Source of the DNA: an uncultured Ignavibacteria bacterium
Lineage (GTDB): Bacteria > Bacteroidota > Ignavibacteria > Ignavibacteriales > Ignavibacteriaceae
Direction: 5' to 3'
Assembly (NCBI GenBank): GCA_963711455.1
Contig: CAVQEH010000002.1
Location: 522,756 to 586,755 of the forward strand
DNA: 64,000 nt
Positions 11,961 through 27,425 of the stretch are shown here, piece by piece. Position 1 is the first letter of the stretch. Each line of letters starts with the position of its first letter. Position numbers and translations under genes: made by a program. The notes below the pieces were generated by a model. It had not been told where the DNA came from. It did no database searches and was given only the letters and a program-made list of their open reading frames with translations.

Positions 11961-12725
11961 CTACTCAATCTTAAATTCAAATCTTGATTCTTGCCACGAT
12001 TTAGTCCCTGTATCCAGTGACTTTTCAATAAATAATACTTCATTCATACTATTAATTAAGAGGACGGTTGAGGAGCGGGTACCATAATTTTCACTTTTTA
12101 TAAAAACAGGTGAAACGGCTTTTTCAAGTTCGGAACTTAATCCGGTATCAGGAAGCTGATCATCCGGAGTTTCCGTTTCATCTGATAATATTTTAAATAA
12201 ATCATCTGTTACAATTTCTTCTTCTGAGGTTACTTCAAGAAAAGCTTTTTTGCTTTTTACAACTTTTTGCCAGGGAGTATCAAGCAGGTGATTGCTCAAT
12301 CCATAAACACCTTCGGTTAATTGGGTTAGCTGCTTTGTCTGATTAGAAAAATAGTAAAGTGTTTCAATGTCCGAAAATAAAAGATTGTATCCGTTATAAT
12401 CATCAGCTTTTTCATTTAAACCGTGTCCGTAAATTAAAGGTGAATCTTTTGAAAGAAGGAAATTTGTTACCAATTCGCCTCTGGAAGAAGCATTTTTTTT
12501 CAATGTTCTCATATCGCGGTAATTAGTAACAGCAGCGAATCTTCCGTTTTTTGTAATTCCAAGCCATGTTCCACCTGCTTCAAGATCTTTACCCGCAAGC
12601 AATTTGGGATGATCTTTCCAGAAATGTGCTGTCGCTGTTGGCCGATTATAAAATTCATCCCGGTTTGCTGCAACAATTAAAGGATACTCAGGGTGGTTGT
12701 TGAAAGAAATTAAAAGAAGACACAT
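11961..12725 (-). CDS. NRDE family (DUF833 / TANGO2-like) protein
   Basis: N-terminal MC...VAANRDEFYNRPT motif (Cys2 plus NRDE) is diagnostic of this family. Confidence 0.8.
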   Translation of the reverse strand: MCLLLISFNNHPEYPLIVAANRDEFYNRPTATAHFWKDHPKLLAGKDLEAGGTWLGITKNGRFAAVTNYRDMRTLKKNASSRGELVTNFLLSKDSPLIYGHGLNEKADDYNGYNLLFSDIETLYYFSNQTKQLTQLTEGVYGLSNHLLDTPWQKVVKSKKAFLEVTSEEEIVTDDLFKILSDETETPDDQLPDTGLSSELEKAVSPVFIKSENYGTRSSTVLLINSMNEVLFIEKSLDTGTKSWQESRFEFKIE

Positions 12726-12987: not shown

Positions 12988-13013
12988 CATAAATTCATAT
13001 AGGGAGAACCTTA

Positions 13014-13304
13014 CTAATAATTATCATCGTCATCTTCATTCATGAAATTGCTTTCATCTTCATTTTCATTTTCATCTTCATCTTCATTCTCTTCCCACAT
13101 TTTATCATTTTCTTCATCAGGATCGGGTTCAAATTCGCTGTCATCAGGATCGTAATTATCTGTATAATAATTTCGGTTATTTAATTTATTTTTTTCAGAG
13201 CGGGAATGTTTAATTTCACTTCTATGTTTTTTATAGTTACGAATCTTTTCTCCTCTTTCACCTCTGGCTTTATTATCTCTTTCATCTCTATCTCTGGAAT
13301 CCAT
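13014..13304 (-). CDS. Small (96 aa) bipolar charged low-complexity protein, function unknown
   Basis: Strong SD (GGAGG) 5 nt upstream of the ATG, and its own terminator downstream. The N-terminal half is basic (R/K/E-rich). The C-terminal half is extremely acidic (D/E/N runs). Confidence 0.6.
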   Translation of the reverse strand: MDSRDRDERDNKARGERGEKIRNYKKHRSEIKHSRSEKNKLNNRNYYTDNYDPDDSEFEPDPDEENDKMWEENEDEDENENEDESNFMNEDDDDNY

Positions 13305-13425
13305 AACAACCTCCCGGCCTATAAAAAAATATTAATTTCAGATAAAAATATTGTCCAATTTTTTAGAATCAAAATAGTACAGCCTGCTTAAAAGCACAAT
13401 GTGATATTTTGCAACAGCATCAAAA

Positions 13426-13707
13426 TTATTGAATTTCTATACCGGGGGAAAAAGCAATGAAACCTTCAATATTTAATTTATTATTCTTAATATCGGGATA
13501 GTACCAGGCTCCATTCCAGTTTATAGCATCACCGACCAGGATATTGTAAAAATTAGCGGTACCGAGATCAGCATCTATATGCCTGGTGTAACTTTTCTTT
13601 AAGAATTCTTTTTTTACCGAACCGGGAGGGAAATAAGTATAACCATTTATGTTCTTTGCTTTTTTACTTTCAGCAATAACCTCACCATTCCAGATAGCTT
13701 TCGCCAT
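13426..13707 (-). CDS. DUF427 domain protein
   Basis: 93 aa. The pattern AIWNGEVIAES...GYTYFPP...ANFYNI...NGAWYYP matches my recollection of the DUF427 consensus. Confidence 0.7.
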   Translation of the reverse strand: MAKAIWNGEVIAESKKAKNINGYTYFPPGSVKKEFLKKSYTRHIDADLGTANFYNILVGDAINWNGAWYYPDIKNNKLNIEGFIAFSPGIEIQ

Positions 13708-14198
13708 ATTTAATCCTCCAATATTACTTGTTGCTTAATATTGCTAATGTTTATTATTTTCTGCGTTTGGTATGCTTTACTATAATATAAAGAATTCAGA
13801 ATGTCAATCCTTCAAAAATTCCCCTCTGGGAGCGTTTTTATTAGTTGATTTTGATTTGAGATTAGGTATTTTAGTACAAATAAAAATTAACAGGTAATAG
13901 AATATAGAAAATTAGTTACCACATATCTTTTAATAATCACAGTTAAAAATTTTCATCACAGAAGAGAGATTAGTGATAATCTAGATTGAGGAATGTTATA
14001 ATTTATTTTTAGAATGATTTGTATTGTTCTTACAAGTGTGTTTCAAAGGTAAGGTTCTGTCATTGATGAAAAATAAAATAAACTCCCAAAGATTTCAGAA
14101 GTAAAAATTGAAGAAGGTAATTATATTCTAATATACCCGGCTATAGTGGACAATGTTTTTAAACTCCTAAAGATGTAATCTAATAAAGGAGAACCTTT

Positions 14199-17033
14199 AT
14201 GAAAAAATTTTTACTGATTTTATGTTCATTTCTTATTGCTGTTTCAATATCATTTGCCGGTTCCACCGGTAAATTATCAGGAAAGATTACAGATAAATCA
14301 ACCGGTGAATCTCTTCCCTTTGTAAATGTGGTTATAATGGGGACAACAACAGGAGCAGCCACTGATGTTGACGGTAATTATAATATTCTCAACATTCAAC
14401 CGGGAACGTATACTGTAAAAGCTTCTGCTATCGGGTACAATAGTATGATTGTTGAGAATGTAAAGATTCAGATTGACCTTACTACCAGGATTGATTTTTC
14501 TCTTTCTCCTACCAGTGTAGAATTGGGACAGGAAGTTGTCGTCATCGCATCCAAGCCTCTTGTTCAAAAAGATTTAACTTCGTCCACTGCGATTATAAAT
14601 GCTCAGGATATTCAGGCTTTACCAATAACAAGTTTTCAGGATGCATTACAACTTCAGGCCGGAATTGTAAAAGATAAAAATGGAGATTTTCATTTTCGTG
14701 GAGGCAGATCCGGTGAAGTTTCATATTGGATTGATGGTGTCCCTGTAACTAATGCTTACGATGGTAGTACAGTAGTTGATATAAATAAAAATTCAATTCA
14801 GGAAATGCAGCTTGTTACGGGTGCTTTCAACGCAGAGTATGGACAAGCTATGAGTGGTATAGTTAATATTGCTACAAAGACAGGTGGTAATGATACCCAC
14901 GGAAATATAACTGCCTATCAGGGAGCGTATTTAACTCAGAATTCGGACGTATTCTATGGCACTCAAAGAGTCAACCCTTTTTTGGGTAGTACAGCAAACA
15001 AAATTAGCTGGCTGGAGGGTTCTTTAAATGGACCAATTTTAAATGATATACTCTTTTATTATGTCGATGCCCGCTACTATTATACCGGCGGGTATTTATT
15101 TGGTCAACGCAGATACAATACTTTTGATATTGCGAACACTGTGGATGTAAGTCCTGCAAACTGGATAATACCGCAAACAGGAGATGGTTCTATTGTTTCA
15201 ATGGCTCCTAACATGGAGGCATATGCTCAGGGGAAACTGACTTTAAAAATTTCTCCGGCATTTACTATTTCGTATGATTACATTCTTGATAATACCCGTG
15301 GAAAAGATTATGACTTTGCTTATAAATATAATCCCGATGGTTTATTAAGCAATTTTAAAAAGGGGTATTTGAATTCGTTGACTATCACTCATGCCGTAAG
15401 CAGTTCAACCTTCTATACTGTAGGATTATCAGATTATTTTACGGATTATAGAGAATATCTTGATGCGAATACTTTTTCACTTTCTGATTTGTTTAATAGA
15501 AAAGATCCTTTCGATCAACAGTATGTGCATACAAAATTGTTATTACCACCAGAGGGTACTTTTCTTACCGGTGGTACAAATATGACTCATAATGTTAGAA
15601 GTACAAATACTTATGTGGCTAAAATTGATTTAACCAGCCAGGTATCTAATAATCATGAAATTAAAACCGGTGCATTATTTAATTATTATACTCTATTTCT
15701 TCATAACATAAATTTACATATGTCCCAGGCAGATAATAATCGTGATCCGGTTGTTGATGGGAAAGCATTTTTACAGGATCCGGTTGTTATCCCTTCGATT
15801 GAAAGTCAGGACAATCAGTTTTATCAGCATAATCCCTGGCAAGCTTCTTTTTATGCACAGGATAAAATGGAGTATCAATCTATTATTGTTAACTTCGGAT
15901 TAAGGTTTGATTATTTTCATCCCAATGGTCAGATCTTAGCAGATCCATCAGACCCCAATATTTATTTACCTTTAAAACCTCAAAATCAGGATAGTGTGGT
16001 TGCACCCGGTGGAACTCATGCAGATGCTGTTGCAAAAAGGATGACATATTGGTATAAAGATGCTACGGATAAATGGCAGGTTAGTCCAAGGCTTGGTGTT
16101 TCTTTTCCGATAACGGATAGAGGTGTTATTCATTTCTCGTACGGTTTGTTTTTCCAGATTCCATCGTTTGAAAGGTTGTTTGAAAATCCAATGTACAAGC
16201 TCCCGGTTACCGGCGGAAGCACAAATCTTGGAATTATCGGAAACCCGGATCTTAAACCGGAACAAACTACCAGCGGTGAATTAGGTGTTCAGCAGCAATT
16301 AACAGATGACATTGCAATAGACATAACCGGGTACTTCCGGGATATTAGAAATTTAGCCGGAACTCTTAATGAAATACAATATGTATTCGGCGGAACAAAA
16401 ATATACAGCCAGTATGTAAATACTGATTTTGGATTTATAAGGGGAATTGTCCTATCCCTAAATAAAAGATTTTCAGATGGAATATCTGCTACTTTAGATT
16501 ATACTTTTCAGATAGCAAAAGGAAACGCATCGGATCCGGCAAGTTCTTTTAATCTTAGAAATACCGGGGTACAGGCAGAGACTCAATTGATTCCTCTCGA
16601 TTGGGATCAGACACATTCTGTTAATGCAACATTTAATTACGTTAACAGAACTGCCGACTGGGGAGGAAGTATTGTTTTAAGATTCAGCACCGGTCAGCCA
16701 TATACTCCGCAGGGAATAACTAATGTTGGCACTCTAGTTTATAACTCGCAGAATATTCCATCAAGTACAGATATTGATTTAAGCCTTTACAAAGATTTTT
16801 CTATTGGTCCTTCAACCATGTCTCTTTTCTTAAGGATTAATAATTTAATAGATACAAAAAACCCGACACAGGTTTATACAGATACCGGTCAGCCTGACTG
16901 GTCGTTGGCTGAACAGCAGCAGCTTAGAATCGGCGGACCACACCCGGTTTCTTCAGTGCAAGACTGGTATACAAAACCAAATTATTATTCAGAACCAAGA
17001 AGAGTTGAGTTAGGTACAACTATTTCATTTTAA
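14199..17033 (+). CDS. SusC/RagA-like TonB-dependent outer-membrane receptor (carboxypeptidase-regulatory-like N-terminal extension + plug + beta-barrel)
   Basis: Signal peptide. CarbopepD_reg-like segment GKITDKSTGESLPFVNVVIMGTTTGAATDVDGNYNILNIQPGTYTVKASAIGY. Plug region (DIQALPITSFQDALQLQAGIV...FRGGRSGEVSYWIDGVPV). Long barrel ending ...ELGTTISF. Confidence 0.85.
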   Translation: MKKFLLILCSFLIAVSISFAGSTGKLSGKITDKSTGESLPFVNVVIMGTTTGAATDVDGNYNILNIQPGTYTVKASAIGYNSMIVENVKIQIDLTTRIDFSLSPTSVELGQEVVVIASKPLVQKDLTSSTAIINAQDIQALPITSFQDALQLQAGIVKDKNGDFHFRGGRSGEVSYWIDGVPVTNAYDGSTVVDINKNSIQEMQLVTGAFNAEYGQAMSGIVNIATKTGGNDTHGNITAYQGAYLTQNSDVFYGTQRVNPFLGSTANKISWLEGSLNGPILNDILFYYVDARYYYTGGYLFGQRRYNTFDIANTVDVSPANWIIPQTGDGSIVSMAPNMEAYAQGKLTLKISPAFTISYDYILDNTRGKDYDFAYKYNPDGLLSNFKKGYLNSLTITHAVSSSTFYTVGLSDYFTDYREYLDANTFSLSDLFNRKDPFDQQYVHTKLLLPPEGTFLTGGTNMTHNVRSTNTYVAKIDLTSQVSNNHEIKTGALFNYYTLFLHNINLHMSQADNNRDPVVDGKAFLQDPVVIPSIESQDNQFYQHNPWQASFYAQDKMEYQSIIVNFGLRFDYFHPNGQILADPSDPNIYLPLKPQNQDSVVAPGGTHADAVAKRMTYWYKDATDKWQVSPRLGVSFPITDRGVIHFSYGLFFQIPSFERLFENPMYKLPVTGGSTNLGIIGNPDLKPEQTTSGELGVQQQLTDDIAIDITGYFRDIRNLAGTLNEIQYVFGGTKIYSQYVNTDFGFIRGIVLSLNKRFSDGISATLDYTFQIAKGNASDPASSFNLRNTGVQAETQLIPLDWDQTHSVNATFNYVNRTADWGGSIVLRFSTGQPYTPQGITNVGTLVYNSQNIPSSTDIDLSLYKDFSIGPSTMSLFLRINNLIDTKNPTQVYTDTGQPDWSLAEQQQLRIGGPHPVSSVQDWYTKPNYYSEPRRVELGTTISF

Positions 17034-17049
17034 GATGCAGGTTTAAAAA

Positions 17050-20000
17050 ATGCGTAAATATTTTATTGTTATTATCCTTTTTGCTTCAACTGTTTTTAGT
17101 TTTGCACAGCAGAATTCCGATTATATTCAATGGGCTAAAACTCATCGCGGCAACAGTTTATATACAAGATTCGGATTGCTTAACGGAAACAGAACTGCAA
17201 TTACCTATAGTAATGATGGCTCTATTGCCGGTACTAATCCTACCGACCTCAGGGGCTATTGGCCATATCCTGCTACACAGGATGGTTACATTGGCGATGT
17301 TACTCCTTTAGTTGGAATAGAACTACCCGCACGGGATTATAATGGTGATGGAATTTTAGACACTCTTCACTCAGTTACTATTACTACAGGTCCGCGTACC
17401 GGACAGGCGGCTAAAACAGATCCTAATGATGGACATTTTCAGGGGTTCGGCCCTGAACCCGGTTATGTTAATACTAATCAGGATACAGTTGCCAAAAACA
17501 CTGTCAGAAATTCCTGGCCGCCTTTTTGGCCTGACAACCCCTCGTGGCTTGATTCAACAGGTAAACCCGTATGGGATGGTTATTTTGGAAAAGGAGTTGA
17601 AAGAGCAGACCAGGAAACTTTTTTTGTTATGGATGATGCCCCGGATAACAATCCTCAGTTCAGAACAAATTTTAAATTCCATCCGGATTCTACCGACACT
17701 ACACGTAACGGAATGGGTCTTCTGGTAAGCGTGAGAGGAATGCAATGGTCTCAGATTCAGGCTCAGGATGTTGTTTTCTGGTTGTATGATATTACGAATA
17801 TCGGAACTACAGATTATACCAAAGTTTGTTTTGGGGAAGTATTAGGAGGCTGTGTTGGCGATGTTGGTCAGGTTTACACTGACTGTAGTGACGACCTGGG
17901 TTATTTCGATCTGAATAATAATCTTACTTATAACTGGGATAGTGATGATCAGACTTCCGATCCGTTATGGATTCCTATTAACCAGGTTCTTACAGGTGTA
18001 AGACGGAATACAGGTTTTGCAGGTTATGCATACCTGGAAAGTCCGGGTAATGGATTTGACGCAATTGATAATGATAATGATGCAGTAGATCCTTCCAGCC
18101 CGGTATTCCAGGAAACTGATTTTCAATTTAATTCAAGCCTTGGTTATATCTCTTCACGTACTCTTCATAAAAGTAATCCCGGTCCGCTTCCAAATTGGCC
18201 TGCAAATAAAATCGTTATTATAGATCCATCAACCTATGAGAGAACAGTAGTTCTCCTTGATACCTTGCTTCATAGTTTAACCGATACTGTTACTATACAT
18301 TCTCAGGGAATAGCTTATAGAATTTATGATGGTGTTACAGTTACCGAGATAGTAAATAACGGAATAGATGATAATCTTAATGGTCTTATTGATGAAAATC
18401 ATGATCTTCACTATAAAAGAATTTTCAAGGATAATAATGGAGTTGTAATAAAGACCGAACTGAGACCTTTGGCATATAGAAATTATTTAACAGGACTTGG
18501 TTCAAATAATACTCTTATAGATGAACGTAGAGATAGTGGTCCGGGTAATATGGTTTCCGGTTATGTTCCTGATTACACACAGCAGCCTGATCCTGTAACG
18601 GGGAAGTATCCTGCTATTGTTAAATCTCACTGGTCAGGTGATGAGAATGGAGACTGGAATCCTTTGAAGGATGATGTTGGCGCCGATGGTTTGGCTGATA
18701 CTCATGATGCGGGTGAAGGCGACGGAATGCCGACATTGGGTGAACCTCACTTTGATAAAACAGATGTAAATGAATCAGACCAGATCGGTTTGACCAGCTT
18801 TAATTTCTTTAACCAGAGTGCTTCCCCGCCAATGAATAATAATGAAATATTATGGAACAGAATGAAACCGGGATATTTTGATGTAATTCCTCTTCTGCCG
18901 CAGGATGGAGACTTTATATATTCATCCGGATATTTTCCGCTTCTTTCCGGACGAACAGAAAGATTTTCTTTAGCACTTGTCTTTGGTGCTGACAGTTCAA
19001 ATATTTTTAAGAATAAAAAAATTGCTCAGAGAATTTATAACTCTAATTATGATTTCCTTAAGCCGCCTCCGAAACCTAAATTAACAATTGTACCCGGTGA
19101 TAAGCAGGCTACATTGATCTGGGATTCAAAAGCGGAAGCTTATGTTTCTTTCCAGGGATATAAAATATACCGTTCAACAGATCCCGGTTTTACTGAAGGA
19201 GGCGGTGAGCCTATTGCTACTTTTGATTTAAAAGATTCGGTAAACGGCTATTTTGTCCCTGCTTCACAGGATCTTGCAGAGCTCCCAAGATTTTACCTGG
19301 GAAGCAACTCCGGGTTGGTTCATACTTTTGTTGATAGAAATCTTCAGAACGGACAGCGTTATTTTTATGCAGTTACTGCCTATACTTCAGGCGATCCTAA
19401 TAGTAATTTTTATCCCGCAGAAGATCCCAAGTATGTTACAATAAATAGTGATGGTTCGGTAAGCACAGATGTAAATACATCAGTTGTTGTTCCCAGATCA
19501 TCTGTAGCAGGGTACCAGGGTCCGAACGCACCGAGTCTTCTTGGTCCTGTTCCGGGAACAGTTCCGTTTGGCTCAGGTAAAGTTTATTTATATGTAGTTA
19601 ACCCGGCTGCGGTTAAAAATAAAACTTACAGGGTTACTTTCTCTGATCAGATAACTAATTATGTTCCTGTTACACAATCATATTACGTTATAGATTATAC
19701 CGGGGGGAGCGCGCAGGATACTTTATTGAAAGTGCCTCTTACTTCAAAGGATACTTTGGTTGGTGATTATGATAAATATGTTTTTGATGGTGTTTACCTT
19801 TCCATTGAAAATGACTGGACTATTAGATACGATACATCAAGGACCAGGTGGAATATTGTTCATCCGATTAAAGATTACAAGATATCTGTTTCACCTTTCA
19901 TATCGGCAAATGTAGAGGAAGTTGGGATTGCTTATCCACATGATATTAATATCGTTTTTGATGATTCGCATACTTCAGCAGATACATCCACGCAACTTGT

Positions 20001-20679
20001 GATTACACGTTATCACGCACCATATACTTTGCCCAAGCTAAATACAAATTTTAGACTAATTGATGCTAAAACAAGTGCACCGGTCAAGTATGCATATCTT
20101 CCCGGATATATAAGTGGTATGTTTTCCTATCAATCACGAATAATCATTTTGCAGGATACTAAAACTGAAAGCGGACAAGATACAACTATCATTACTTGGT
20201 TAGCGCAGGTAGCAGGGGCTGATAGTGTTAGTTATCATCCTACTGCCGGCGATACATTAAAGCTGAGATTTAAAATACCATTTACAAGTCAGGATCAGCT
20301 TCAGATTACAACAACTTCAGCATCGGTAAATAATAAGCTCGCTTCATCACAGTTAGATAAAATAAGGGTTGTCCCGAATCCGTACCTTGCAACAACAAGC
20401 CAGGAAGCACCGTTACCTCCGACTATCACCAGCGGAAGAGGTGAAAGGAAAATATCTTTTATTCATCTTCCGAAGAATTCGAAGATTTATATCTTTACAG
20501 CAAGAGGTGAGCTTGTAAGAACTCTTGATATGCCTGCTAATCAGAGTATTGATGATGGTTCTGTGGATTGGGATTTACGCAGCAGGGAAAATATTGAGGT
20601 TGCTTATGGAGTTTATTTCTATCTGGTAGACGCTCCAAATGTTGGTCAAAAAACCGGTAAACTCGCTATAATTAAGTAA
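17050..20679 (+). CDS. 1209-aa secreted protein of unknown function with Asp-rich Ca-binding-type loops, an FN3-like module and a T9SS/FlgD-Ig-like C-terminal domain
   Basis: Signal peptide (…VFSFAQQ). Asp-rich loops DNDNDAVD, NNGIDDNLNGLIDEN and DDVGADGLADTHDAGEGDG. FN3-like region PPKPKLTIVPGDKQATLIWD...YKIYRS...RYFYAVTAYT. Tail VVPNPY...GVYFYLV...KTGKLAIIK. Confidence 0.8.
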   Translation: MRKYFIVIILFASTVFSFAQQNSDYIQWAKTHRGNSLYTRFGLLNGNRTAITYSNDGSIAGTNPTDLRGYWPYPATQDGYIGDVTPLVGIELPARDYNGDGILDTLHSVTITTGPRTGQAAKTDPNDGHFQGFGPEPGYVNTNQDTVAKNTVRNSWPPFWPDNPSWLDSTGKPVWDGYFGKGVERADQETFFVMDDAPDNNPQFRTNFKFHPDSTDTTRNGMGLLVSVRGMQWSQIQAQDVVFWLYDITNIGTTDYTKVCFGEVLGGCVGDVGQVYTDCSDDLGYFDLNNNLTYNWDSDDQTSDPLWIPINQVLTGVRRNTGFAGYAYLESPGNGFDAIDNDNDAVDPSSPVFQETDFQFNSSLGYISSRTLHKSNPGPLPNWPANKIVIIDPSTYERTVVLLDTLLHSLTDTVTIHSQGIAYRIYDGVTVTEIVNNGIDDNLNGLIDENHDLHYKRIFKDNNGVVIKTELRPLAYRNYLTGLGSNNTLIDERRDSGPGNMVSGYVPDYTQQPDPVTGKYPAIVKSHWSGDENGDWNPLKDDVGADGLADTHDAGEGDGMPTLGEPHFDKTDVNESDQIGLTSFNFFNQSASPPMNNNEILWNRMKPGYFDVIPLLPQDGDFIYSSGYFPLLSGRTERFSLALVFGADSSNIFKNKKIAQRIYNSNYDFLKPPPKPKLTIVPGDKQATLIWDSKAEAYVSFQGYKIYRSTDPGFTEGGGEPIATFDLKDSVNGYFVPASQDLAELPRFYLGSNSGLVHTFVDRNLQNGQRYFYAVTAYTSGDPNSNFYPAEDPKYVTINSDGSVSTDVNTSVVVPRSSVAGYQGPNAPSLLGPVPGTVPFGSGKVYLYVVNPAAVKNKTYRVTFSDQITNYVPVTQSYYVIDYTGGSAQDTLLKVPLTSKDTLVGDYDKYVFDGVYLSIENDWTIRYDTSRTRWNIVHPIKDYKISVSPFISANVEEVGIAYPHDINIVFDDSHTSADTSTQLVITRYHAPYTLPKLNTNFRLIDAKTSAPVKYAYLPGYISGMFSYQSRIIILQDTKTESGQDTTIITWLAQVAGADSVSYHPTAGDTLKLRFKIPFTSQDQLQITTTSASVNNKLASSQLDKIRVVPNPYLATTSQEAPLPPTITSGRGERKISFIHLPKNSKIYIFTARGELVRTLDMPANQSIDDGSVDWDLRSRENIEVAYGVYFYLVDAPNVGQKTGKLAIIK

Positions 20680-20688
20680 GAGGTTTTT

Positions 20689-21693
20689 ATGAAGAAGTTT
20701 TTACTAATGGTAATGATTCTTTTAATCGGAAATATCTATGGGCAGGATAAAGTAGGTACAACTGCAGCACCATTTCTTGGTATTGGCGCCGGTCCTACAG
20801 CTATAGGAATGGGTGGTGCTTTTGTTGCTGTTGCAAACGATCCTTCTGCTTTATACTGGAATCCTGCCGGGATTTCGAGAACAGGTCAAAACCAGTTTCT
20901 TTTCGAGCATACTAACTACCTGATCGGAACAAGCTATAATTATTTTGGAGGTGTTGTAGCTCTGGATGAAGATAATGCAATTGGTTTGAGTATAACCTAC
21001 CTGGATTATGGAAGCGAAAATGTTACAACTATAAATATGCCTGACGGTACAGGTGAAACATGGTCTGCAAAAGATATGTCTTTAGGTCTAACCTATTCGA
21101 GAAATTTAACTGACAGATTTTCAATTGCAGGTACTGCTAAAATGATATTACAGCAAATCTGGCATGAATCGGCAACCGGCTGGGCACTCGATGCAGGACT
21201 TTTGTATATTACGCCGTTCAATGATTTAAAAATAGGTATGGATATTTCTAATTTCGGTACTGATATGAGAATGACGGGTGAAGATCTTTACATAACCCAT
21301 AATCCTGATCAGTCGGTAGCAGGGGATAATAGTAAAATTCCTGCTGAGTATTATACCGATAGTTATCCTTTACCGCTTTTGTTCAGATTAGGAGTATCGA
21401 TGGATGTTATTAAATCTGAAGATAATACGGTTACTCTTGCAGTAGATGCATTGCATCCGAATGATAATGCACAGAGTGTGAATGTCGGCGGACAATATTC
21501 CTGGAATAACACTATTTATGCAAGGGTTGGTTATAAATCGATTGGTATTCCCAGTAGTGAAGAAGGAATAACTTTTGGTTTCGGTCTGGCTTATGAGGTG
21601 ATCGCAAATGTAACTTTTAAATTAGATTATGCTTATGAAAATTACGGCATACTGAGTAATATTCAGAAATTTGCTGTATCGGTTAATTTTTAA
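20689..21693 (+). CDS. PorV/PorQ-family-like outer-membrane beta-barrel protein
   Basis: Signal peptide followed by GTTAAPFLGIGAGPTAIGMGGAFVAVANDPSALYWNPAGI, the N-terminal signature I associate with PorV/PorQ (FadL-like) proteins. Alternating beta-strand pattern, ending in F. Confidence 0.72.
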   Translation: MKKFLLMVMILLIGNIYGQDKVGTTAAPFLGIGAGPTAIGMGGAFVAVANDPSALYWNPAGISRTGQNQFLFEHTNYLIGTSYNYFGGVVALDEDNAIGLSITYLDYGSENVTTINMPDGTGETWSAKDMSLGLTYSRNLTDRFSIAGTAKMILQQIWHESATGWALDAGLLYITPFNDLKIGMDISNFGTDMRMTGEDLYITHNPDQSVAGDNSKIPAEYYTDSYPLPLLFRLGVSMDVIKSEDNTVTLAVDALHPNDNAQSVNVGGQYSWNNTIYARVGYKSIGIPSSEEGITFGFGLAYEVIANVTFKLDYAYENYGILSNIQKFAVSVNF

Positions 21694-21817
21694 ATTAATT
21701 ACGTACATTTTTTTTTATTTATTTTTATTGTTGTTAATTAAAAATAAAATTTTATCCACTATATGAGAAAATCTTAGTATTATCATTAATTGGTTACAAT
21801 TAGAAAGGAGATCTTTT

Positions 21818-23299
21818 ATGATAAGAAGGTTAATAACCATGGCGGCGTTATTGCTTGCTTTTGGTTATACAAATAGTGCACTTGCTACCGTTGATGTTAC
21901 ATTTCAGGTGCATATGGGAATACAGATGCAGTTAGGTAATTTCAACCCCGCAACAGACAGTGTTGTTGTTCAGGGTGATTTCCAGACTATGGTCGGTGAT
22001 ACGGCTAATTGGTATGGAACAATGTTTCTTTTAACAGATACCAATAACGATTCGGTTTACACGATCACTATAACTTTCCCGGATTCATCTGTTACTCACA
22101 GTATTCAATATAAGTTTGGGATTGAACATAATGGTTCATCAACGCTTGAGCAGGGAAGTAATAGGACATATACTATAACTTCGGACCCAACCCAAACTCT
22201 TCCAGTTGTTTATTACAGCAACCTTTCCAATCCTGTGACTGCTAGTATAACTTTTCAGGCGGATATGGCTGAATTATTAAACGAGGGTTTCGTTCCCGGT
22301 TCGGATTCAATGGAAGTAATGGGTGATACCTCACCATTAACCTGGACAACACCGGGAGCTGTCCTGCTTCAGGATCTAATTGATCCAAATTTATTTTCTG
22401 TGACATTGACATTCATTGCGCAGCCTGGTAGTGCTGTTCAATGGAAATTTCATGGTGATCCTGCAAACCATTTCTCAAATGGAGGATGGGAAAGCGGAGA
22501 TAACCATACATTTACATTCCCAAGCCAGGATACAACATTAGCTATGGTTTCTCCAAATGTTCATATTGCTACGCCAACCACATCAGACAATACAGTTTAT
22601 TTCCGGGTTGATATGAACGGTGCGCACGAAAGATACCATAACACCTTAATAACGGGATTAAAAAGTGTTTGGATTGGCGGTGCTGCTTTACCGCTTCAGT
22701 GGCCCTCCAACTGGACTTTCCCTGATACTGCTTCGGGAATTCTCGTAAAAATGTATGATGATGCTAGTCATAGTGATTCAATTGCGGGAGATAATATATA
22801 CTCAAATATGCTCGTTTTTCCGTCAGGAACACCAGGCTTTGTTGAATTTAAATACGGAGCCGTTTTTGATGGTGTTGATACATTAAATGGCGGCGCAAGC
22901 TACCTTGATAATGAAGCAGGTTTTAGTCTTAATCATGGTCTTACACTAAATCTTGCCGGCGGTACGGTTTACAGGATTAATATGTTTGGTGATCAGGCAA
23001 CTGCTATAGAACAGGTGCCGGATAACAATATTCCTAAGACTTACACATTAAGCCAGAATTATCCTAATCCTTTTAACCCCACCACTAATATTGTGTATTC
23101 GGTTCCAAAGAGTGGATTGGTTACCTTGAAAGTGTACAATATTCTTGGACAGCAAGTAACAACATTATTCCGGGGATTCCAGAATACCGGAAAATATATT
23201 GCTACTTTTGATGCATCAAAATTCTCAAGCGGAGTTTATTTCTATCGCCTGCAGGCGGGAAGTACAACTCTTACAAAGAAAATGATGCTGATGAAATAA
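21818..23299 (+). CDS. T9SS cargo protein: three CBM-like beta-sandwich repeats plus a type-A C-terminal sorting domain
   Basis: Signal peptide. Three repeats start at VDVTFQVHMG, ASITFQADMA and TVYFRVDMNG. The CTD is NYPNPFNPTTNI...GVYFYRLQAG...KKMMLMK. Confidence 0.8.
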   Translation: MIRRLITMAALLLAFGYTNSALATVDVTFQVHMGIQMQLGNFNPATDSVVVQGDFQTMVGDTANWYGTMFLLTDTNNDSVYTITITFPDSSVTHSIQYKFGIEHNGSSTLEQGSNRTYTITSDPTQTLPVVYYSNLSNPVTASITFQADMAELLNEGFVPGSDSMEVMGDTSPLTWTTPGAVLLQDLIDPNLFSVTLTFIAQPGSAVQWKFHGDPANHFSNGGWESGDNHTFTFPSQDTTLAMVSPNVHIATPTTSDNTVYFRVDMNGAHERYHNTLITGLKSVWIGGAALPLQWPSNWTFPDTASGILVKMYDDASHSDSIAGDNIYSNMLVFPSGTPGFVEFKYGAVFDGVDTLNGGASYLDNEAGFSLNHGLTLNLAGGTVYRINMFGDQATAIEQVPDNNIPKTYTLSQNYPNPFNPTTNIVYSVPKSGLVTLKVYNILGQQVTTLFRGFQNTGKYIATFDASKFSSGVYFYRLQAGSTTLTKKMMLMK

Positions 23300-23321
23300 T
23301 CCCATCTATAATTGATAATAA

Positions 23322-23347
23322 GGGTCGTTGAAAAACGACCCTTTTTT
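23322..23347 (+). terminator. Rho-independent terminator
   Basis: GGGTCGTT-GAAA-AACGACCC hairpin followed by TTTTTT. Confidence 0.9.
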
Positions 23348-23461
23348 ATATATACACTGAGTTTGTAATTATTAATGCCTGACGGAACAGAAATGAATTT
23401 TATAGTTTATAGAGTGTAATTATTTTTAAGTAGTACAATTTGAAATTTCGGAAAATGACGC

Positions 23462-25252
23462 ATGAGTTTTAAACAGCGCATCTCTATTTCATTCTTTATC
23501 TTTATCACTTTTTTTTCAATTAATAATTTATTTGCACAGCCTGATACTCTGGCAATTGTAAATGGAGAACCGATTACAAGCGATGAGTTTATTGACAGGT
23601 TTGAATTAACTGTTTATCCCGGTAAGGGACTAAATGAAGATCTTCAAAAGGCTAAACAGAATTTTTTATATTCAATGGTTGCCGAAAAACTTCTATCGAA
23701 TGAATCATCTATGTCGTCTTTAGATAAAGACCCGTATGAAGATTATATAAAGAATGAAGTCACTGATATTTTTTTAAGGGATGCACTTTACAGGAAAGAA
23801 GTACTATCTAAAGTAAAAGTCTCCCGGGATGAAATAAAACAGGGTGTAAAATATTCAGGTTATAATTATATAGTTGATGCGTTTTATTTTCCTGATAGTC
23901 TTTGGGCAAATAGTTTTTATCAAAAAATAAATAATAAGCCGGAAAAGTATGTCTATCATATTTCCGATAGTTTAAATCTTTGTCACGACACACTTGAAAT
24001 TGGTTATGGAGAATCGGATGAGACAATTGAAGATGCTTTCTTTAGCAGGGATATAGGCTTTAATTCAAAACCAACAAATACAGTTGATGGCTGGATTGTT
24101 TTCAGAGTTATCAATAAAAATCTTAACAAGAAGTTTTCATCGGTTTCTACTGAAAAAAAATCTAAAATGGTTCATGATATAATTGCATACAGGAAGGGAT
24201 ATAGAATAGCCCGCGACTATATAGATGAAGTGATGAAAGGAATCGAGGTTAACTTAAATTATAGAATATTTAACCCGCTTGTGTATAAGATAAAAAGTAT
24301 CTTATCAACTCATCAGCCTGCAAGCTTTGAAGGAAGATATTATCTAAGCCGTCAAGAGCTTGTTAATTTAAAGGATAATTTTTCATTTGATCCCAGGGCA
24401 CCGATACTGAAATTTAAAGGCGGTGAATTATCTCTTGGATATATTTTCGATAATCTGTCTCTTGCGGGATTTGCCCCAGTCGATACATCGATCCGGCAAA
24501 TTACATTTTCACTTCATAAGGCATTAAAATTTATTGTGCAGAATTATTTTCTTGCCGAAAAGGCTAAAGAGCTTGGTTTGGAATCATCTTCGGAAGTGAA
24601 GTATAATACCCAAACTTTCCTGGATGCATATCGTTCAAACCGTTTTGAAAACGAAATTACAGACACAATAAAAATATCAGCCAAGGAATTAAATAATTTT
24701 TTCGAATCTCATAAGGATGAGGTTTTAAAAGATATTGAGCTGAGGCTGCAAATATTTTCGCCGGACAATATTGATGAAGCAGCCGAAGTCTTAAACAGGT
24801 TAAACATGTCTAAAAATTCACTTGAAGATACAACCGGGGCTGTCTGGTTTCACGCTTATCAGTTAGGAGAAATCGGGGCAGTCATCGCTGAACTGGATAA
24901 CGGAAGTATTTATGGTCCGTTATTTATGAATGGTAAGTATACAATATTCAGGCTTCTTGAAAAAAGATCAAAGATATCACAGAGGGAGATAAGCAAAAGT
25001 ATCCAGGCTGCGCAGGATTTATTGCTTGAGGAAAAAAGAAATGAAGCAATAAATAAATACCTTGCTAAATTAACAACCAGCCAGGCGACTAAAATTTTTG
25101 AATCAAAACTGGATAAAGTTGATGTGACACCTATTCAGATGTTAACATTCAGGTATATTGGATTTGGCGGAAAGATTATTGCGACTCCATCCCTTTATCC
25201 CCGTGAGGACTGGATCAATTATGTAAAAGATAAGAAAAAAATCCTGCCATAA
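23462..25252 (+). CDS. Periplasmic SurA/PpiD-like chaperone with a degenerate parvulin-like domain (putative)
   Basis: Signal peptide followed by LAIVNGEPITSDEFIDRF, typical of SurA-N-like domains. A weak parvulin-like region lies near aa 420-500. The call is tentative. Confidence 0.5.
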   Translation: MSFKQRISISFFIFITFFSINNLFAQPDTLAIVNGEPITSDEFIDRFELTVYPGKGLNEDLQKAKQNFLYSMVAEKLLSNESSMSSLDKDPYEDYIKNEVTDIFLRDALYRKEVLSKVKVSRDEIKQGVKYSGYNYIVDAFYFPDSLWANSFYQKINNKPEKYVYHISDSLNLCHDTLEIGYGESDETIEDAFFSRDIGFNSKPTNTVDGWIVFRVINKNLNKKFSSVSTEKKSKMVHDIIAYRKGYRIARDYIDEVMKGIEVNLNYRIFNPLVYKIKSILSTHQPASFEGRYYLSRQELVNLKDNFSFDPRAPILKFKGGELSLGYIFDNLSLAGFAPVDTSIRQITFSLHKALKFIVQNYFLAEKAKELGLESSSEVKYNTQTFLDAYRSNRFENEITDTIKISAKELNNFFESHKDEVLKDIELRLQIFSPDNIDEAAEVLNRLNMSKNSLEDTTGAVWFHAYQLGEIGAVIAELDNGSIYGPLFMNGKYTIFRLLEKRSKISQREISKSIQAAQDLLLEEKRNEAINKYLAKLTTSQATKIFESKLDKVDVTPIQMLTFRYIGFGGKIIATPSLYPREDWINYVKDKKKILP

Positions 25253-25264
25253 TTTCCCGTTGAT

Positions 25265-26128
25265 TTATTCTTCTTTGAGTAAAGATTTTTTACAGCTTTC
25301 AAGTGCGGCTAATTGTTCTTTTGGCAGAACCGGGTATGACATTTTCAGTTCTTCTAATGTTTCTACAATCACTTCTGATACGGCGTAACGCATATACCAT
25401 TTATGATCCGCAGGTATAATAAACCAGGGAGCGTGCTTTTTGCTTGTAGCTGAAATTGTTTCTTCATAAGCAGCTTGGTATTTATCCCAGAAATTTCTTT
25501 CTTTAATATCCGAAGCAGAAAACTTCCAGTTCTTTTCGGGAGTGTCTATTCTTTCCAGGAATCTTTTTTTCTGTTCTTCTTTGGAAATATGAAGGAAAAA
25601 TTTAATTGTTATTGTCCCGTTTTCATATAAATATTTTTCAAAATCATTTATCTCCCTGTACCTGTTGTTCCATACTTCTTTATTAATTAACTCGGGAGGA
25701 ATGTTCTGGCTTTGTATTAAATCGTGAACACGAACTACCAGGACTTCTTCATAATGTGACCGGTTGAAAATTCCTATCCTTCCTCTTTCAGGAACATTTT
25801 TATGGATTCTCCAAAGGTAATCGTGATCAAGTTCTGCAGTAGAAGGCTGCTTAAAGCTGAATACTTGTGTACCTTGGGGATTCAGCCCGGACATAACATG
25901 CTTGATTGTCCCGTCTTTTCCCGCGGCATCCATTGCCTGGAAGATGATTAATAAAGAATATTTATCGTAAGCATAAAGCATATTCTGAAGGTCTGACATT
26001 TTCTTAATGTTCTTAATCAGAATTTCTTTTGCATCTTCCTTTGATTTGAATGATCCTGTATCTGAAGCACTTGTTTGTGAAAGTAAAACTTTGCTTCCCG
26101 GTTTTATTAGATAGTCTGACTTTTTCAT
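25265..26128 (-). CDS. Polyphosphate kinase 2 (PPK2) family protein
   Basis: LLIIFQAMDAAGKDGTIKHV (Walker A-like), YLWRIHKNVPERGRIGIFNRSHYE and the lid region are characteristic of PPK2. Confidence 0.9.
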   Translation of the reverse strand: MKKSDYLIKPGSKVLLSQTSASDTGSFKSKEDAKEILIKNIKKMSDLQNMLYAYDKYSLLIIFQAMDAAGKDGTIKHVMSGLNPQGTQVFSFKQPSTAELDHDYLWRIHKNVPERGRIGIFNRSHYEEVLVVRVHDLIQSQNIPPELINKEVWNNRYREINDFEKYLYENGTITIKFFLHISKEEQKKRFLERIDTPEKNWKFSASDIKERNFWDKYQAAYEETISATSKKHAPWFIIPADHKWYMRYAVSEVIVETLEELKMSYPVLPKEQLAALESCKKSLLKEE

Positions 26129-26133: not shown

Positions 26134-27123
26134 TTAATTCTGTTTCTTAGATGTAAATCTGTCTACTTTGTGATGAATTGGTGGTACAGTCTTTAAGTAA
26201 TCATAGATTGCATTCAGATCTTTATCAGCCATACCTGCATACGAATTCCATGGCATTGGTGTATTGAATTCACCCGGAGTTATAGTAGCATCTTTGTCAG
26301 AATATTGTTCAAACTGGTTTAAAAAATCTTTTCTTGTCCATCTTCCGATCCCGGTTTCAATATCGGGAGTAATATTAACCGACCTGACTATCCCTCCTTT
26401 GATTCTGAATTCTGTTCCTCCGGCAAAGGTCAGCTCATCATCCAGCTTCCCTTCTTTCATAGGAGTATGACAGTTTTTACAGTCTGCAATAGTAACCAGG
26501 TATTTCCCGTATTCAACAGAGTTTGATTCATCTATCGAATTTATCGGATCGTACGATTTTGGTGGAAATGTTTTCACGATCAGGTTCATTGGAAAATTAA
26601 TTGAACTTTGAGGGACTTCGTTTACAATAGGTTGAAGCGTTCTTAAATAAGCGATTATAGAATAAAGATCTTCCAATTTAAGATTGTGGTATTCAAGGTA
26701 AGGCATCAGCGGAAAGAGTACCCTGTTATCCTTTGTAACACCGGTTGTTATCGCCCTTAGCACTTCACCATTTGTCCATTCACCAATTCCCGATGGCGTA
26801 ATGTTGCCGGCATATATAGTTCCAGGCAAACCATCTTCAAATTTTTCTCCGCCCATACCTTCAGTTCCGGGAATAACGGGTCCGGAAAACTTTGTCCAGT
26901 CCCTTGTAGAATGACAGGAAAGGCATACGGTGACGTGATTAACGAGGTAATTTCCCCTTTCAATTCGCTGAACTGTTGGGAAAATTTCAACTTTCGGTGC
27001 CTGAATAGTTTTAGGGTAGTTGTTATTGAAATAAATATATCCACCGATAAGAATTATAATGATAAAGAGAAAAAAATATTTTATAATCCGGTAGATTATT
27101 TTCTTACTCTTTTTTTTGCCCAT
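26134..27123 (-). CDS. Membrane-anchored dihaem cytochrome c
   Basis: N-terminal TM helix. Two CxxCH motifs (CLSCH, CKNCH). Class-I cytochrome c patterns NITPSGIGEWT and NITPDIETGIGRWT. Confidence 0.85.
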   Translation of the reverse strand: MGKKKSKKIIYRIIKYFFLFIIIILIGGYIYFNNNYPKTIQAPKVEIFPTVQRIERGNYLVNHVTVCLSCHSTRDWTKFSGPVIPGTEGMGGEKFEDGLPGTIYAGNITPSGIGEWTNGEVLRAITTGVTKDNRVLFPLMPYLEYHNLKLEDLYSIIAYLRTLQPIVNEVPQSSINFPMNLIVKTFPPKSYDPINSIDESNSVEYGKYLVTIADCKNCHTPMKEGKLDDELTFAGGTEFRIKGGIVRSVNITPDIETGIGRWTRKDFLNQFEQYSDKDATITPGEFNTPMPWNSYAGMADKDLNAIYDYLKTVPPIHHKVDRFTSKKQN

Positions 27124-27360: not shown

Positions 27361-27392
27361 AAAAAAAACCGCCCTTGTTTAATCCGGGCGGT
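27361..27392 (-). terminator. Rho-independent terminator of the 27426-28418 cytochrome gene
   Basis: ACCGCCC / GGGCGGT stem (27368-27374 and 27386-27392), followed on the minus strand by a run of 7 T. Confidence 0.85.
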
Positions 27393-27425
27393 AGAATTAA
27401 TTACATATTATAAAAAAGGACATTT

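Follow-up and report, generated by a model that had tools for sequence, protein, structure and literature searches.

A conserved four-gene outer-membrane cluster of Ignavibacteria as a candidate core for SusD-independent glycan capture and import

The window analysed here, 64,000 nucleotides from an uncultured Ignavibacteria bacterium, contains a cluster of four genes that encode a TonB-dependent transporter (gene 1), a large secreted protein (gene 2), a barrel of the PorV/PorQ family (gene 3) and a CBM20-like T9SS cargo (gene 4). On balance, we favour a PUL-like system for glycan capture and import that works independently of SusD, of which this cluster would form the conserved core, with an alpha-glucan, i.e. 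starch or maltodextrin, as the most likely substrate in this orthologue group. More tentatively, the products of genes 1, 2 and 3 may form one stable outer-membrane complex, in which gene 3 permanently tethers gene 2 over the gene 1 transporter. A sequence-only reading of the same DNA had described a self-contained, uncharacterised surface module, and had offered either SusD-independent capture and import or a dedicated cargo with a private PorV-type shuttle as its mechanism. The family matches and the strict synteny reported below fit this description and both mechanisms, which look less like alternatives than like the two halves of a single system. We found no published description of the four-gene cluster.

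The four genes lie on one strand (Table 1), separated by gaps of 16, 9 and 124 nt, and are preceded by 491 nt of non-coding DNA (13708-14198). The hairpin that follows gene 4 (23320-23343) has ten pairs, five of which are G-C, and runs into TTTTATATAT; a terminator scan of positions 13000-25500 found no terminator-like site in the 124-nt gap before gene 4. The coordinates, gaps, upstream region and terminator put forward by the sequence-only reading were all confirmed. Upstream of gene 1, the motifs TTAGGTA and TTAGTTA stand about 50 nt apart and are the only invariant blocks in an alignment of the upstream regions of six orthologous loci. The same pair occurs, with a spacing of 50-54 nt, in loci L006, L008, L009, L022, L045, L048 and L050, and in all of these except L006 a Y_Y_Y sensor kinase and two LuxR-type regulators are encoded directly upstream. 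Judged from sequence, the pair is a candidate operator for a LuxR-type response regulator.

Table 1 Features of the cluster, in positions of the window.
Feature	Position	Strand	Evidence
Conserved upstream motif pair TTAGGTA / TTAGTTA	13862-13868 / 13912-13918	+	alignment of orthologous upstream regions
Gene 1, TonB-dependent transporter, 944 aa	14199-17033	+	Pfam Plug, barrel, CarbopepD_reg_2 above cutoffs
Gene 2, secreted protein, 1209 aa, unannotated large family	17050-20679	+	ORF, AF2 model, family profile
Gene 2 signal peptide	17050-17106	+	
Gene 2 N-terminal domain, about 650 aa, Asp-rich loops	17107-19056	+	
Gene 2 FN3-like domain	about 19069-19506	+	model + Foldseek
Gene 2 two variable beta-sandwiches	about 19507-20331	+	
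Gene 2 conserved CTD-like tail	about 20359-20676	+	model + Foldseek
Gene 3, outer-membrane beta-barrel, PorV/PorQ family, 334 aa	20689-21693	+	NF033709
Gene 4, T9SS cargo, 493 aa, three CBM20-like repeats + type A CTD	21818-23299	+	Pfam, TIGR04183
Gene 4 repeat A, aa 22-138	21881-22231	+	
Gene 4 repeat B, aa 139-252	22232-22573	+	
Gene 4 repeat C, aa 253-408	22574-23041	+	
Gene 4 CTD, aa 409-493	23042-23296	+	
Intrinsic terminator-like hairpin + T-run, 3' end of cluster	23320-23353	+	top-ranked terminator-like site in 13000-25500

The synteny of the first three genes, which the sequence-only reading had singled out for a check, proved to be strict across phyla. Gene 1 adjoins gene 2 in 70 of 71 testable loci, the remaining locus having a frameshifted copy of gene 1, and gene 3 adjoins gene 2 in 73 of 74, the exception being a frameshift artefact; i.e. 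the order and adjacency of the trio are effectively kept in 71/71 and 74/74 testable loci. The median gap between the reading frames of genes 1 and 2 is about 17 nt. Because the arrangement is conserved in the 85 loci fetched for this survey, down to 35% identity in gene 2, it is not a product of chance. A homologue of gene 4 follows gene 3 in 49 of 67 loci and precedes gene 1 in three more, and in every locus examined the fourth position is held by a CTD protein, usually with CBM20. The trio is borne by Ignavibacteriota, Kryptoniota and Calditrichota, and at least 444 species-level genomes have the module, whose protein clusters run into the thousands. It is open to direct testing, since the cluster is present, as IALB_0486-0489, in a cultured type strain, Ignavibacterium album JCM 16511.

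The proposed substrate follows from gene 4 and from the surroundings of related clusters. Repeat A of gene 4 matches CBM_20 (37.9 bits, cutoff 23.3), the three repeats are mutually homologous in profile-profile comparison (hhalign probabilities of 99.8%, 97.9% and 96.8%) and the CTD matches both TIGR04183 (49.3, cutoff 23) and Por_Secre_tail PF18962 (45.3, cutoff 27), which bears out the earlier view of three CBM-like repeats with a T9SS tail. A CBM20-like fold is not proof of starch binding, which is here a prediction. The flanking genes vary in a PUL-like fashion and include GH13 and GH66 enzymes with T9SS tails, LacI regulators (14 loci), Y_Y_Y kinases (10 loci), LuxR regulators (15 loci), SSF symporters (8 loci) and sugar ABC transporters, the last represented in related loci by an SBP_bac_1 binding protein and two BPD_transp_1 permeases. 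A GH13 gene lies within 7 kb in about 18 of the 85 loci, and close orthologues encode a 1400-aa protein with CBM48, GH13 and a CTD directly after gene 3 or gene 4. On one Kryptoniota contig, two paralogous cores 30 kb apart are accompanied by different enzymes, the one by LacI, a sugar ABC transporter and GH13, the other by an SSF symporter, a 6-hairpin GH and a GH66 with a CTD. The full set of transporter, CAZymes, regulator and inner-membrane sugar transporter is found in loci L003, L004, L008-L014, L016, L017, L021, L022, L086 and L087; the cluster in the window and its two closest relatives, L006 and L007, have no adjoining gene for a CAZyme, a regulator or an inner-membrane sugar transporter. 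The sequence-only reading had held that no substrate could be assigned; the CBM20 match of gene 4, together with the GH13, GH66, LacI and sugar ABC genes of orthologous and paralogous loci, allows an alpha-glucan to be proposed.

Gene 3 had been called PorV/PorQ-like, and the family model NF033709 supports this with 217.7 bits (cutoff 90) in an alignment of residues 24-334 that spans the whole model (positions 1-326 of 326), as does Pfam PorV with 41.8 bits (cutoff 27). The equivalog models for PorQ (NF033711, 114.4 bits vs 220) and PorV (NF033710, 77.8 bits vs 250) stay below their cutoffs, and gene 3 is therefore a member of the family that can be placed with neither of these named orthologues; its sole relative in the PDB is PorV (6h3i_F). 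We propose that gene 3 is the dedicated carrier and anchor for gene 2. Such an arrangement has precedents, as the CTDs of PorZ and PorU are retained, bound to PorQ and PorV (PMC10202324, PMC11285876), and the carrier-protein concept includes type B cargo that remains on its carrier (PMC10994853).

Homologues of gene 2 fill more than 1186 and more than 2305 clusters at 90% identity, and those that are named, the top ones included, are nearly all 'hypothetical', one being labelled in UniRef solely by a FlgD Ig-like domain. The AF2 model (full-length pLDDT 85) ends in a C-terminal beta-sandwich. The FN3 module and the CTD-like tail of the earlier reading were both seen in the model and by Foldseek. 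The tail does not look like a standard type A CTD, as its matches to TIGR04183 (17/29 family tails) are sub-threshold and it most resembles the CTDs that PorZ and PorU retain. All 29 tails of the family match the CTD region of PorZ (best E 1.3e-7) and 23 of them that of PorU, in both cases below the curated cutoff, and further sub-threshold matches are to CHU_C (23/29) and FlgD_ig (10/29). With a mean pairwise identity of 59.8%, the tail is the most conserved part of the protein (N-domain 52.6%, FN3 51.9%, middle 30.4%); the CTD of gene 4 is also highly conserved (55.9%), and a conserved tail is thus not enough to set gene 2 apart. The tail contains an invariant loop, E..L......GRG, that AF2 leaves unplaced (pLDDT 43-45), and in the model this is a pattern typical of a segment that may fold on a partner.

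These properties could also describe a dedicated T9SS cargo-carrier pair for a large adhesin or surface-layer protein, like SprB with SprF, in which genes 2 and 3 have no import role and genes 1 and 4 are independent of them. A large protein of FN3/Ig-like sandwiches beside a PorV-type barrel mirrors type B cargo with its PorP/SprF carrier, the weak CHU_C matches are to the type B CTD model, and Pfam recognises no glycan-binding domain in gene 2. We nevertheless regard this as unlikely, as the transporter adjoins gene 2 in every testable locus, a constancy not easily accounted for unless the two are linked functionally or physically, as the neighbours are CAZymes, sugar regulators and transporters and not motility genes, and as paralogous copies accompany different glycosidases.

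The N-terminal domain of gene 2 is confidently modelled (pLDDT 90.3, pTM 0.90) and has many invariant Asp, Glu, Arg and Trp residues. The Asp-rich loops noticed in the sequence are located here, and the invariant acidic clusters DGIDNDxD, DNDLDGLIDEN and DEDGDW are read as putative Ca-binding loops. For the full-length protein Foldseek returned only FN3 arrays, and for the N-domain nothing at E<=1e-3 in the PDB or BFVD; a weak resemblance (TM about 0.2, E>=8e-3) is to the carbohydrate-binding beta-supersandwich of the N-domains of GH94, GH149, GH15 and GH116. The conservation of this domain is unusual for a surface glycan-binding protein, and could reflect an enzymatic or a purely structural role. 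Gene 2 might thus be a new surface-bound enzyme, either glycan-active or a Ca-dependent hydrolase, that degrades its substrate at the mouth of the transporter, and the strong conservation of the N-domain with its invariant residues, a sole fold resemblance to N-terminal domains of glycoside hydrolases and phosphorylases, and the lack of any other enzyme in the window cluster all speak for it. We hold this to be rather improbable, because the resemblance is to a non-catalytic supersandwich at the low scores given above, because gene 2 has no catalytic-domain match in Pfam, NCBIfam or the PDB, and because its acidic clusters read as Ca-binding loops. The family profile likewise matched no PDB sequence, and neither sequence nor structure searches tied gene 2 to a characterised enzyme family, a match that would have counted against the sequence-only reading.

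It is very improbable that genes 2 and 3 are this lineage's equivalents of PorZ and PorQ, with a housekeeping role in the T9SS attachment complex. It is true that the gene 2 tail most resembles the PorZ CTD, that PorQ is the best equivalog match of gene 3 (114 bits) and that PorZ 5m11 is among the Foldseek matches of gene 2; but the PorZ model NF052228 reaches 17.6 bits on gene 2 against a cutoff of 260, and on the tail only, the TM to 5m11 is about 0.1 (TMq 0.09), two paralogous clusters with different CAZymes stand on one contig, and the link to the TonB transporter is constant and that to sugar regulators frequent.

Gene 1 is a member of the TonB-dependent receptor superfamily, with plug and barrel above the Pfam cutoffs and an aromatic last residue. 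It consists of a signal peptide, a CarboxypepD_reg extension (aa 26-114), a plug (aa 123-220) and a barrel with a terminal Phe (...TTISF), and carries the TonB-box-like EVVVIAS. CarbopepD_reg_2 (74.6 bits), Plug (46.0, cutoff 23.9), TonB_dep_Rec_b-barrel (89.2, cutoff 27) and OMP_b-brl_4 (61.5) all match above their cutoffs. It had been read as SusC-like, with the SusC/RagA layout; the N-terminal layout of SusC stands, but gene 1 is not a member of the SusC/RagA family: TIGR04056 gives 75.5 bits vs a cutoff of 368.25, confined to residues 25-241 (model positions 2-217 of 981). Among PDB sequences its relatives are generic TonB-dependent transporters only (PfeA/FepA, CirA), with SusC and RagA structures absent from the matches. 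The earlier statement that no SusD/RagB-like lipoprotein follows gene 1 is sound, as gene 2 matches nothing in Pfam at E<=0.01, and hence no SusD model, and as its leader is of the signal peptidase I type without a lipobox Cys. True susCD pairs have been reported in Ignavibacteriae (PMC5753385), so the phyla concerned need not rely on a SusD substitute. The least probable alternative is that gene 1 is an outward export channel for gene 2 or gene 4, like Oar of Myxococcus. For this the CarboxypepD_reg and OMP_b-brl_4 matches and the missing SusD partner can be cited, against plug and TonB-box features that fit import and an export route that already exists, given the T9SS sorting tail of gene 4, the sub-threshold CTD-like tail of gene 2 and the other T9SS cargo encoded in the window.

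For the SusD-independent capture and import that we favour, we propose a series of linked steps. Genes 2 and 4 would cross the outer membrane via the T9SS. The PorZ/PorU-like tail of gene 2 would not be cleaved but would stay bound to gene 3, a carrier barrel of its own, at the extracellular loops, much as PorQ keeps PorZ and PorP/SprF carriers keep type B cargo, and this tethering would hold the large N-domain at the cell surface beside gene 1. Gene 4 would bind the polymer, as SusE/F do, and T9SS-secreted GH13 or GH66 enzymes, whose genes stand in related loci and, in this genome, presumably outside the cluster, would cut it. Gene 2 may then take the part of SusD and capture the oligosaccharides or hand them over, for import by gene 1 with TonB energy. 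A Y_Y_Y sensor kinase and a LuxR regulator, which are adjacent in relatives and not in this window, would probably control expression via the TTAGGTA pair.

What is understood of TonB-dependent glycan uptake in the FCB group comes almost wholly from SusC/SusD pairs and surface lipoproteins. If our proposal is true, there is a second, widespread uptake architecture in which the T9SS delivers and anchors the surface partners. It would extend the carrier-protein concept beyond secretion and gliding, and assign a role to the numerous 'hypothetical' proteins of about 1200 aa in the gene 2 family, the fold of which is confidently predicted but unmatched. The more tentative stable complex of genes 1, 2 and 3 would moreover amount to glycan capture free of lipoproteins and SusD, to the first direct functional coupling of T9SS carriers with TonB-dependent import, and to a PUL architecture that is either ancestral in several FCB phyla or an alternative used by them. 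Ignavibacteriota, Kryptoniota and Calditrichota are abundant in sediments, hot springs and wastewater; PUL prediction based on susCD would be blind to their SusD-less loci, for which the module would provide a marker.

The cluster shares features with four known systems. With Oar-like TonB-dependent receptors that lack SusD it has in common the order CarboxypepD_reg-Plug-barrel and the OMP_b-brl_4 match, although that class is not known for an obligatory giant or for partners of the PorV-like type. As in the type B CTD system SprB/SprF of Flavobacterium johnsoniae, where the cargo stays on its carrier, a large, presumed surface protein is encoded next to its own putative carrier barrel and the family tails weakly match CHU_C, but gene 3 belongs to the PorV/PorQ and not the PorP/SprF family, and the proposed context is nutrient uptake instead of gliding. 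The PorZ-PorQ and PorU-PorV pairs of Porphyromonas gingivalis, with their retained CTD docked on the barrel, resemble genes 2 and 3 in that a secreted protein with an Ig-like, CTD-like tail closest to those of PorZ and PorU is encoded beside a PorV/PorQ-family barrel; the body of gene 2, however, lacks the beta-propellers of PorZ and the peptidase domain of PorU, and the pair exists in more than one copy and keeps company with a TonB transporter and CAZymes, not with the secretion machinery. SusC/SusD PULs likewise encode a TonB-dependent transporter with a CarboxypepD_reg-type extension beside surface proteins, a CBM-rich surface binder (gene 4 corresponding to SusE/F), a secreted GH13 in orthologous loci (corresponding to SusG), LacI or Y_Y_Y-sensor regulators and paralogous loci for different glycans. 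In contrast to these PULs, gene 1 falls outside the SusC/RagA model, the cluster is without SusD/RagB, the partners are predicted T9SS substrates with signal peptides free of a lipobox Cys instead of lipoproteins, and a PorV/PorQ-type barrel is the obligatory third member.

Genes 1-3 of the cluster, encoding a TonB-dependent transporter, a 1209-aa secreted giant and a PorV/PorQ-family barrel, form a trio that is joined in the window by gene 4, a CBM20-like cargo of the T9SS. The observed family identities, secretion signals, strict synteny of the trio and contexts resembling polysaccharide utilization loci (PULs) lead us to favour, by a little, the reading that this is an alpha-glucan capture and import core with T9SS-delivered surface parts, a function that we infer. 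Rechecking of the coordinates bears out the layout described in the sequence-only reading: four co-directional ORFs are separated by gaps of 16, 9 and 124 nt, the non-coding stretch 5' of gene 1, put at about 490 nt, measures 491 nt, the 124-nt gap, claimed to be free of hairpins, contains no terminator-like site, and the terminator placed after gene 4 coincides with the best terminator-like hairpin of the region. The ribosome-binding sites of genes 1 and 4 are strong and almost identical (AAAGGAGA). The window is AT-rich (GC 0.32-0.40) and its composition is continuous across the cluster.

Features of the cluster and of the rest of the window (nucleotide positions of the window, except for gene 2 regions, given as residues of the mature protein in the AlphaFold2 model)
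Feature	Position	Strand	Remarks
Histidine kinase	4012-6564	-	cNMP-binding and GAF domains
ECF sigma factor	7275-7835		
TANGO2-family protein, bacterial	11961-12725	-	266 bits; 1.5 kb upstream of cluster
Small terminator-like hairpin	13819-13832	+	TTCCCCTCTGGGAG, then T-run
TTAGGTA-like box pair	13862-13868 and 13912-13918		About 50 nt apart, 5' of gene 1; conserved
Gene 1	14199-17033		944 aa
Gene 2	17050-20679		1209 aa
Gene 2, beta-rich N-terminal region	residues ~1-650		
Gene 2, FN3-like domain	residues ~655-800		
Gene 2, two more beta-sandwiches	residues ~825-1075		
Gene 2, C-terminal beta-sandwich	residues 1087-1190		
Gene 3	20689-21693		334 aa
Gene 4	21818-23299		493 aa
Terminator-like hairpin	23320-23343		Directly 3' of gene 4
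Gene 5, SurA/PpiD-like peptidyl-prolyl isomerase	23462-25252	+	596 aa; SurA_N_2, Rotamase_2
Cytochrome genes	26134-28418 and 53654-55138	-	Two paralogous c-type (~330 aa), one multihaem
RND efflux operon	32649-38856	+	TetR, OEP, HlyD-type adaptor, AcrB-type pump
C25 peptidase-like protein	40417-43446	+	1009 aa; Propeptide_C25, Peptidase_C25, type A T9SS tail
Protein with type A T9SS sorting tail	50307-51464	-	No other domains recognised

With each species represented by one genome, at least 444 genomes were found to encode a relative of gene 2; the best 80 of these loci, which by record title belong to Ignavibacteriota, Kryptoniota, Calditrichota, one Cloacimonetes record and loosely labelled MAGs, were fetched and, with five loci from other assemblies, make up our synteny set of 85. 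The co-occurrence of the trio envisaged by the sequence-only reading holds across these FCB genomes. Gene 2 is immediately preceded by a gene 1 homologue in 70 of 71 testable loci and immediately followed by a gene 3 homologue in 73 of 74, the exceptions being a frameshifted copy and a frameshifted gene 2, respectively, and the median ORF gaps of the trio are about 17 and 12 nt. The fourth position is more variable: a gene 4 homologue is found after gene 3 in 49/67 loci and before gene 1 in another three, and in the remaining sampled loci the place is taken by another protein bearing a T9SS C-terminal sorting domain (CTD), often with a CBM20 or glycosidase domain. All four genes are present in the cultured type strain Ignavibacterium album JCM 16511, where gene 2 is IALB_0487. 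A homologue of the SurA/PpiD-like gene 5 is close to the cluster in about 21 of the 85 loci, sometimes upstream and in reverse orientation. We rejected gene 5 as an operon member, as a terminator intervenes and its orientation differs among relatives; it looks like part of the conserved neighbourhood, and may encode a chaperone serving the outer-membrane proteins of the module.

The surroundings of the cluster, analysed by clustering the flanking ORFs and scanning cluster representatives, include LacI-type regulators (14 loci), Y_Y_Y/Reg_prop sensor kinases (10), LuxR-type response regulators (15), ECF sigma factors (about 9), SSF sugar symporters (8) and a 6-hairpin glycosidase (7). Strong GH13 matches occur in about 18/85 loci, and in 11 loci of the clade nearest the window (gene 2 identity at least 50%) a protein of about 1400 aa with CBM48, GH13 and a CTD directly follows gene 3 or gene 4. 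On the Kryptoniota contig JBJKPC010000016.1 (52995-106722), two paralogous four-gene cores are separated by 30 kb. One is orthologous to the window cluster and has LacI, a sugar ABC transporter and GH13 as neighbours; its paralogue has an SSF symporter, a sigma-54 two-component system, a GH66 with a CTD and a 6-hairpin GH around it. These two loci (L086 and L087) are a natural comparison pair for the determinants of substrate specificity, which are likely to reside in the middle sandwiches, the variable part of gene 2. The window, like the two loci most closely related to it (L006 and L007), has no CAZymes or regulators adjoining the cluster. Loci that keep their transport and binding genes while enzymes and regulators change, and of which a genome has several, follow the logic of PULs, and the recurring CBM20, CBM48, GH13 and GH66 domains point to alpha-glucans. 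The substrate had earlier been considered unassignable; from these domains across the loci, an alpha-glucan is defensible. That genes 2 and 3 are an adhesin and its carrier, working independently of import, is unlikely, as the adjacency of the transporter is invariant and the contexts are sugar-related.

Since Rfam gives no match in the whole window, the region upstream of gene 1 is without a known riboswitch or leader; promoter-like sites are not enriched over shuffled sequences (52 observed, 48.8 expected), and no upstream motif common to all of 68 loci came out of a k-mer search, which returned only A/T-rich words. Both TTAGGTA-like boxes are kept in the window and L006, and one in L007; in other clades the pair co-occurs with an adjoining Y_Y_Y kinase and two LuxR regulators. 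The pair, a putative regulatory element, is clade- and regulator-specific. A small terminator-like hairpin lies about 30 nt before the first box, with no plus-strand gene end close by. In I. album (L088), the cluster is immediately preceded by the same histidine kinase and ECF sigma pair as is found at 4012-7835 of the window, where some 6 kb of other genes come between pair and cluster; a regulatory link is possible.

Gene 2 is one of a very large family, for which one search gave more than 1186 clusters and another more than 2305, and whose named members are nearly all 'hypothetical protein', UniRef labelling one by its FlgD Ig-like domain only. It matches no Pfam family, and a 58-sequence profile found no PDB match at E<=1. 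The AlphaFold2 model, built with the family alignment, is confident (mean pLDDT 85, pTM 0.73), and more so for the N-terminal 650 residues modelled alone (pLDDT 90.3, pTM 0.90). Foldseek returned nothing at E<=1e-3 for this N-domain against PDB and BFVD; the best matches (E about 0.01, TM about 0.2) were to the N-domains of GH94 cellobiose phosphorylase, GH149, GH15 glucodextranase and GH116, which form a non-catalytic beta-supersandwich. The full-length model retrieved FN3 arrays only (TM<0.1), with PorZ and PorU far down the list via their Ig-like parts. On the predicted structure, the family has an unmatched fold, and the confident hit to an unrelated enzyme family that would have told against the sequence-only reading did not appear in the Pfam, PDB profile and Foldseek searches. 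A new surface enzyme encoded by gene 2 would be compatible with the same module; we regard this as quite unlikely, the fold resemblance being to non-catalytic domains only. Many Asp, Glu, Trp and Gly residues are invariant in the family, and the motifs DGIDNDxD, DNDLDGLIDEN, HWSGDEDGDW and DDVGADG are read as putative Ca-binding loops. Mean pairwise identity is 52.6% in the N-domain, 51.9% in FN3, 30.4% in the middle sandwiches and 59.8% in the tail.

The tail of gene 2 was examined by scanning the C-terminal 125 residues of each of 29 family members, every match being below cutoff. The PorZ CTD segment was the best match in 29/29, with PorU found in 23/29 and the type A Por_Secre_tail in 17/29; among Pfam models, CHU_C was found in 23/29 and FlgD_ig in 10/29. 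The tail looks CTD-like, as had been proposed, but it is not of the standard type A; it most resembles the CTDs of PorZ and PorU. These two, with PorA, are among the few T9SS proteins that keep their CTD uncleaved, and the uncleaved CTDs of PorZ and PorU remain bound to PorQ and PorV (PMC10202324; PMC11285876). An invariant loop in the tail (E..L......GRG; in the window ...EAPLPPTITSGRGER...) is the sole internal segment that AlphaFold2 did not place (pLDDT 43-45), which suggests that it may become ordered on a partner. Identity of gene 2 with PorZ was rejected, as the PorZ body is absent; that genes 2 and 3 are housekeeping equivalents of PorZ and PorQ is very improbable, being contradicted also by paralogy and context.

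Gene 3 is PorV/PorQ-like, as first described, matching the family model over its full length (217.7 bits, cutoff 90); it falls below both the PorV and the PorQ equivalog cutoffs, and its sole PDB relative is PorV. Gene 4 carries CBM_20 and a type A T9SS sorting domain, both over cutoff, its tail matching the ordinary type A model outright, unlike that of gene 2. Its three segments of about 115-150 aa are homologous by profile-profile comparison (99.8%, 97.9% and 96.8% probability), in agreement with the three CBM-like repeats and CTD described earlier; BLAST self-comparison found no repeats, and it took profiles to reveal them.

Gene 1 has CarbopepD_reg_2, Plug, TonB_dep_Rec_b-barrel and OMP_b-brl_4 matches, each over its Pfam cutoff, as expected from the extension, plug and barrel first recognised. 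Its SusC/RagA layout was only partly upheld: the N-terminal layout is SusC-like, but TIGR04056 (cutoff 368) scores 75.5 bits and covers the N-terminal 217 positions only, and a PDB sequence search gave PfeA/FepA and CirA as solved relatives, SusC and RagA being absent. We therefore reject a SusC identity and consider gene 1 a genuine TonB-dependent transporter outside the SusC family. Export by gene 1 in the manner of Oar is hardly credible, and unnecessary because T9SS tails are present.

For the alpha-glucan capture and import core we propose the following series of steps. The T9SS would export genes 2 and 4; the window carries further CTD proteins, and Ignavibacteriota are reported to have T9SS genes (PMC11285876). 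Gene 2 would retain its PorZ/PorU-like tail and stay docked on gene 3 as a private carrier barrel, with precedents in PorZ-PorQ (PMC10202324) and in type B cargo staying on PorP/SprF carriers (PMC10994853); this tethered complex is the step that we propose tentatively, at somewhat less than an even chance. Gene 4 would bind the polymer, T9SS-secreted glycosidases would cut it, and gene 2 would take the functional place of SusD, the lid lipoprotein, beside gene 1, which would import the products. The overall interpretation in the sequence-only reading is largely retained, with corrections to the SusC assignment of gene 1, the class of the gene 2 tail and the unassigned substrate.

Among the other genes of the window, the 1009-aa C25 protein scores 58.8 bits against the PorU sortase model (cutoff 420) and has no adjoining PorV-type gene; it may be a divergent PorU, or else a cargo that resembles gingipains. 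The further protein with a type A tail indicates that T9SS cargo is common in the source genome. The RND efflux operon is complete and ordinary. Both paralogous cytochromes match Cytochrom_C and Cytochrome_CBB3 and are likely dihaem, and the multihaem cytochrome has a doubled CXXCH domain and matches the DmsE-family decahaem model below threshold; a comparable multihaem gene is close to the Kryptoniota cluster. The TANGO2-family gene appears unrelated to the cluster.

The module is described in none of the papers found by literature searches for the trio, the IALB locus tags, a PorV-type barrel with a TonB transporter and T9SS in Ignavibacteria. The 2013 genome paper of Melioribacter roseus describes a 'sus operon' (Mros0764-0758) with SusC, SusD, SusE and a secreted CBM48-GH13 (PMC3534657), which could be a true SusCDE locus or the trio mislabelled by position; M. 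roseus is absent from the best 120 matches listed for a Melioribacteraceae query. PULDB contains true susCD pairs in Ignavibacteriae (PMC5753385), and the module is therefore an alternative to SusCD there and not its replacement. The known kinds of system to which it relates are TonB-dependent glycan uptake loci and T9SS carrier-cargo pairs.
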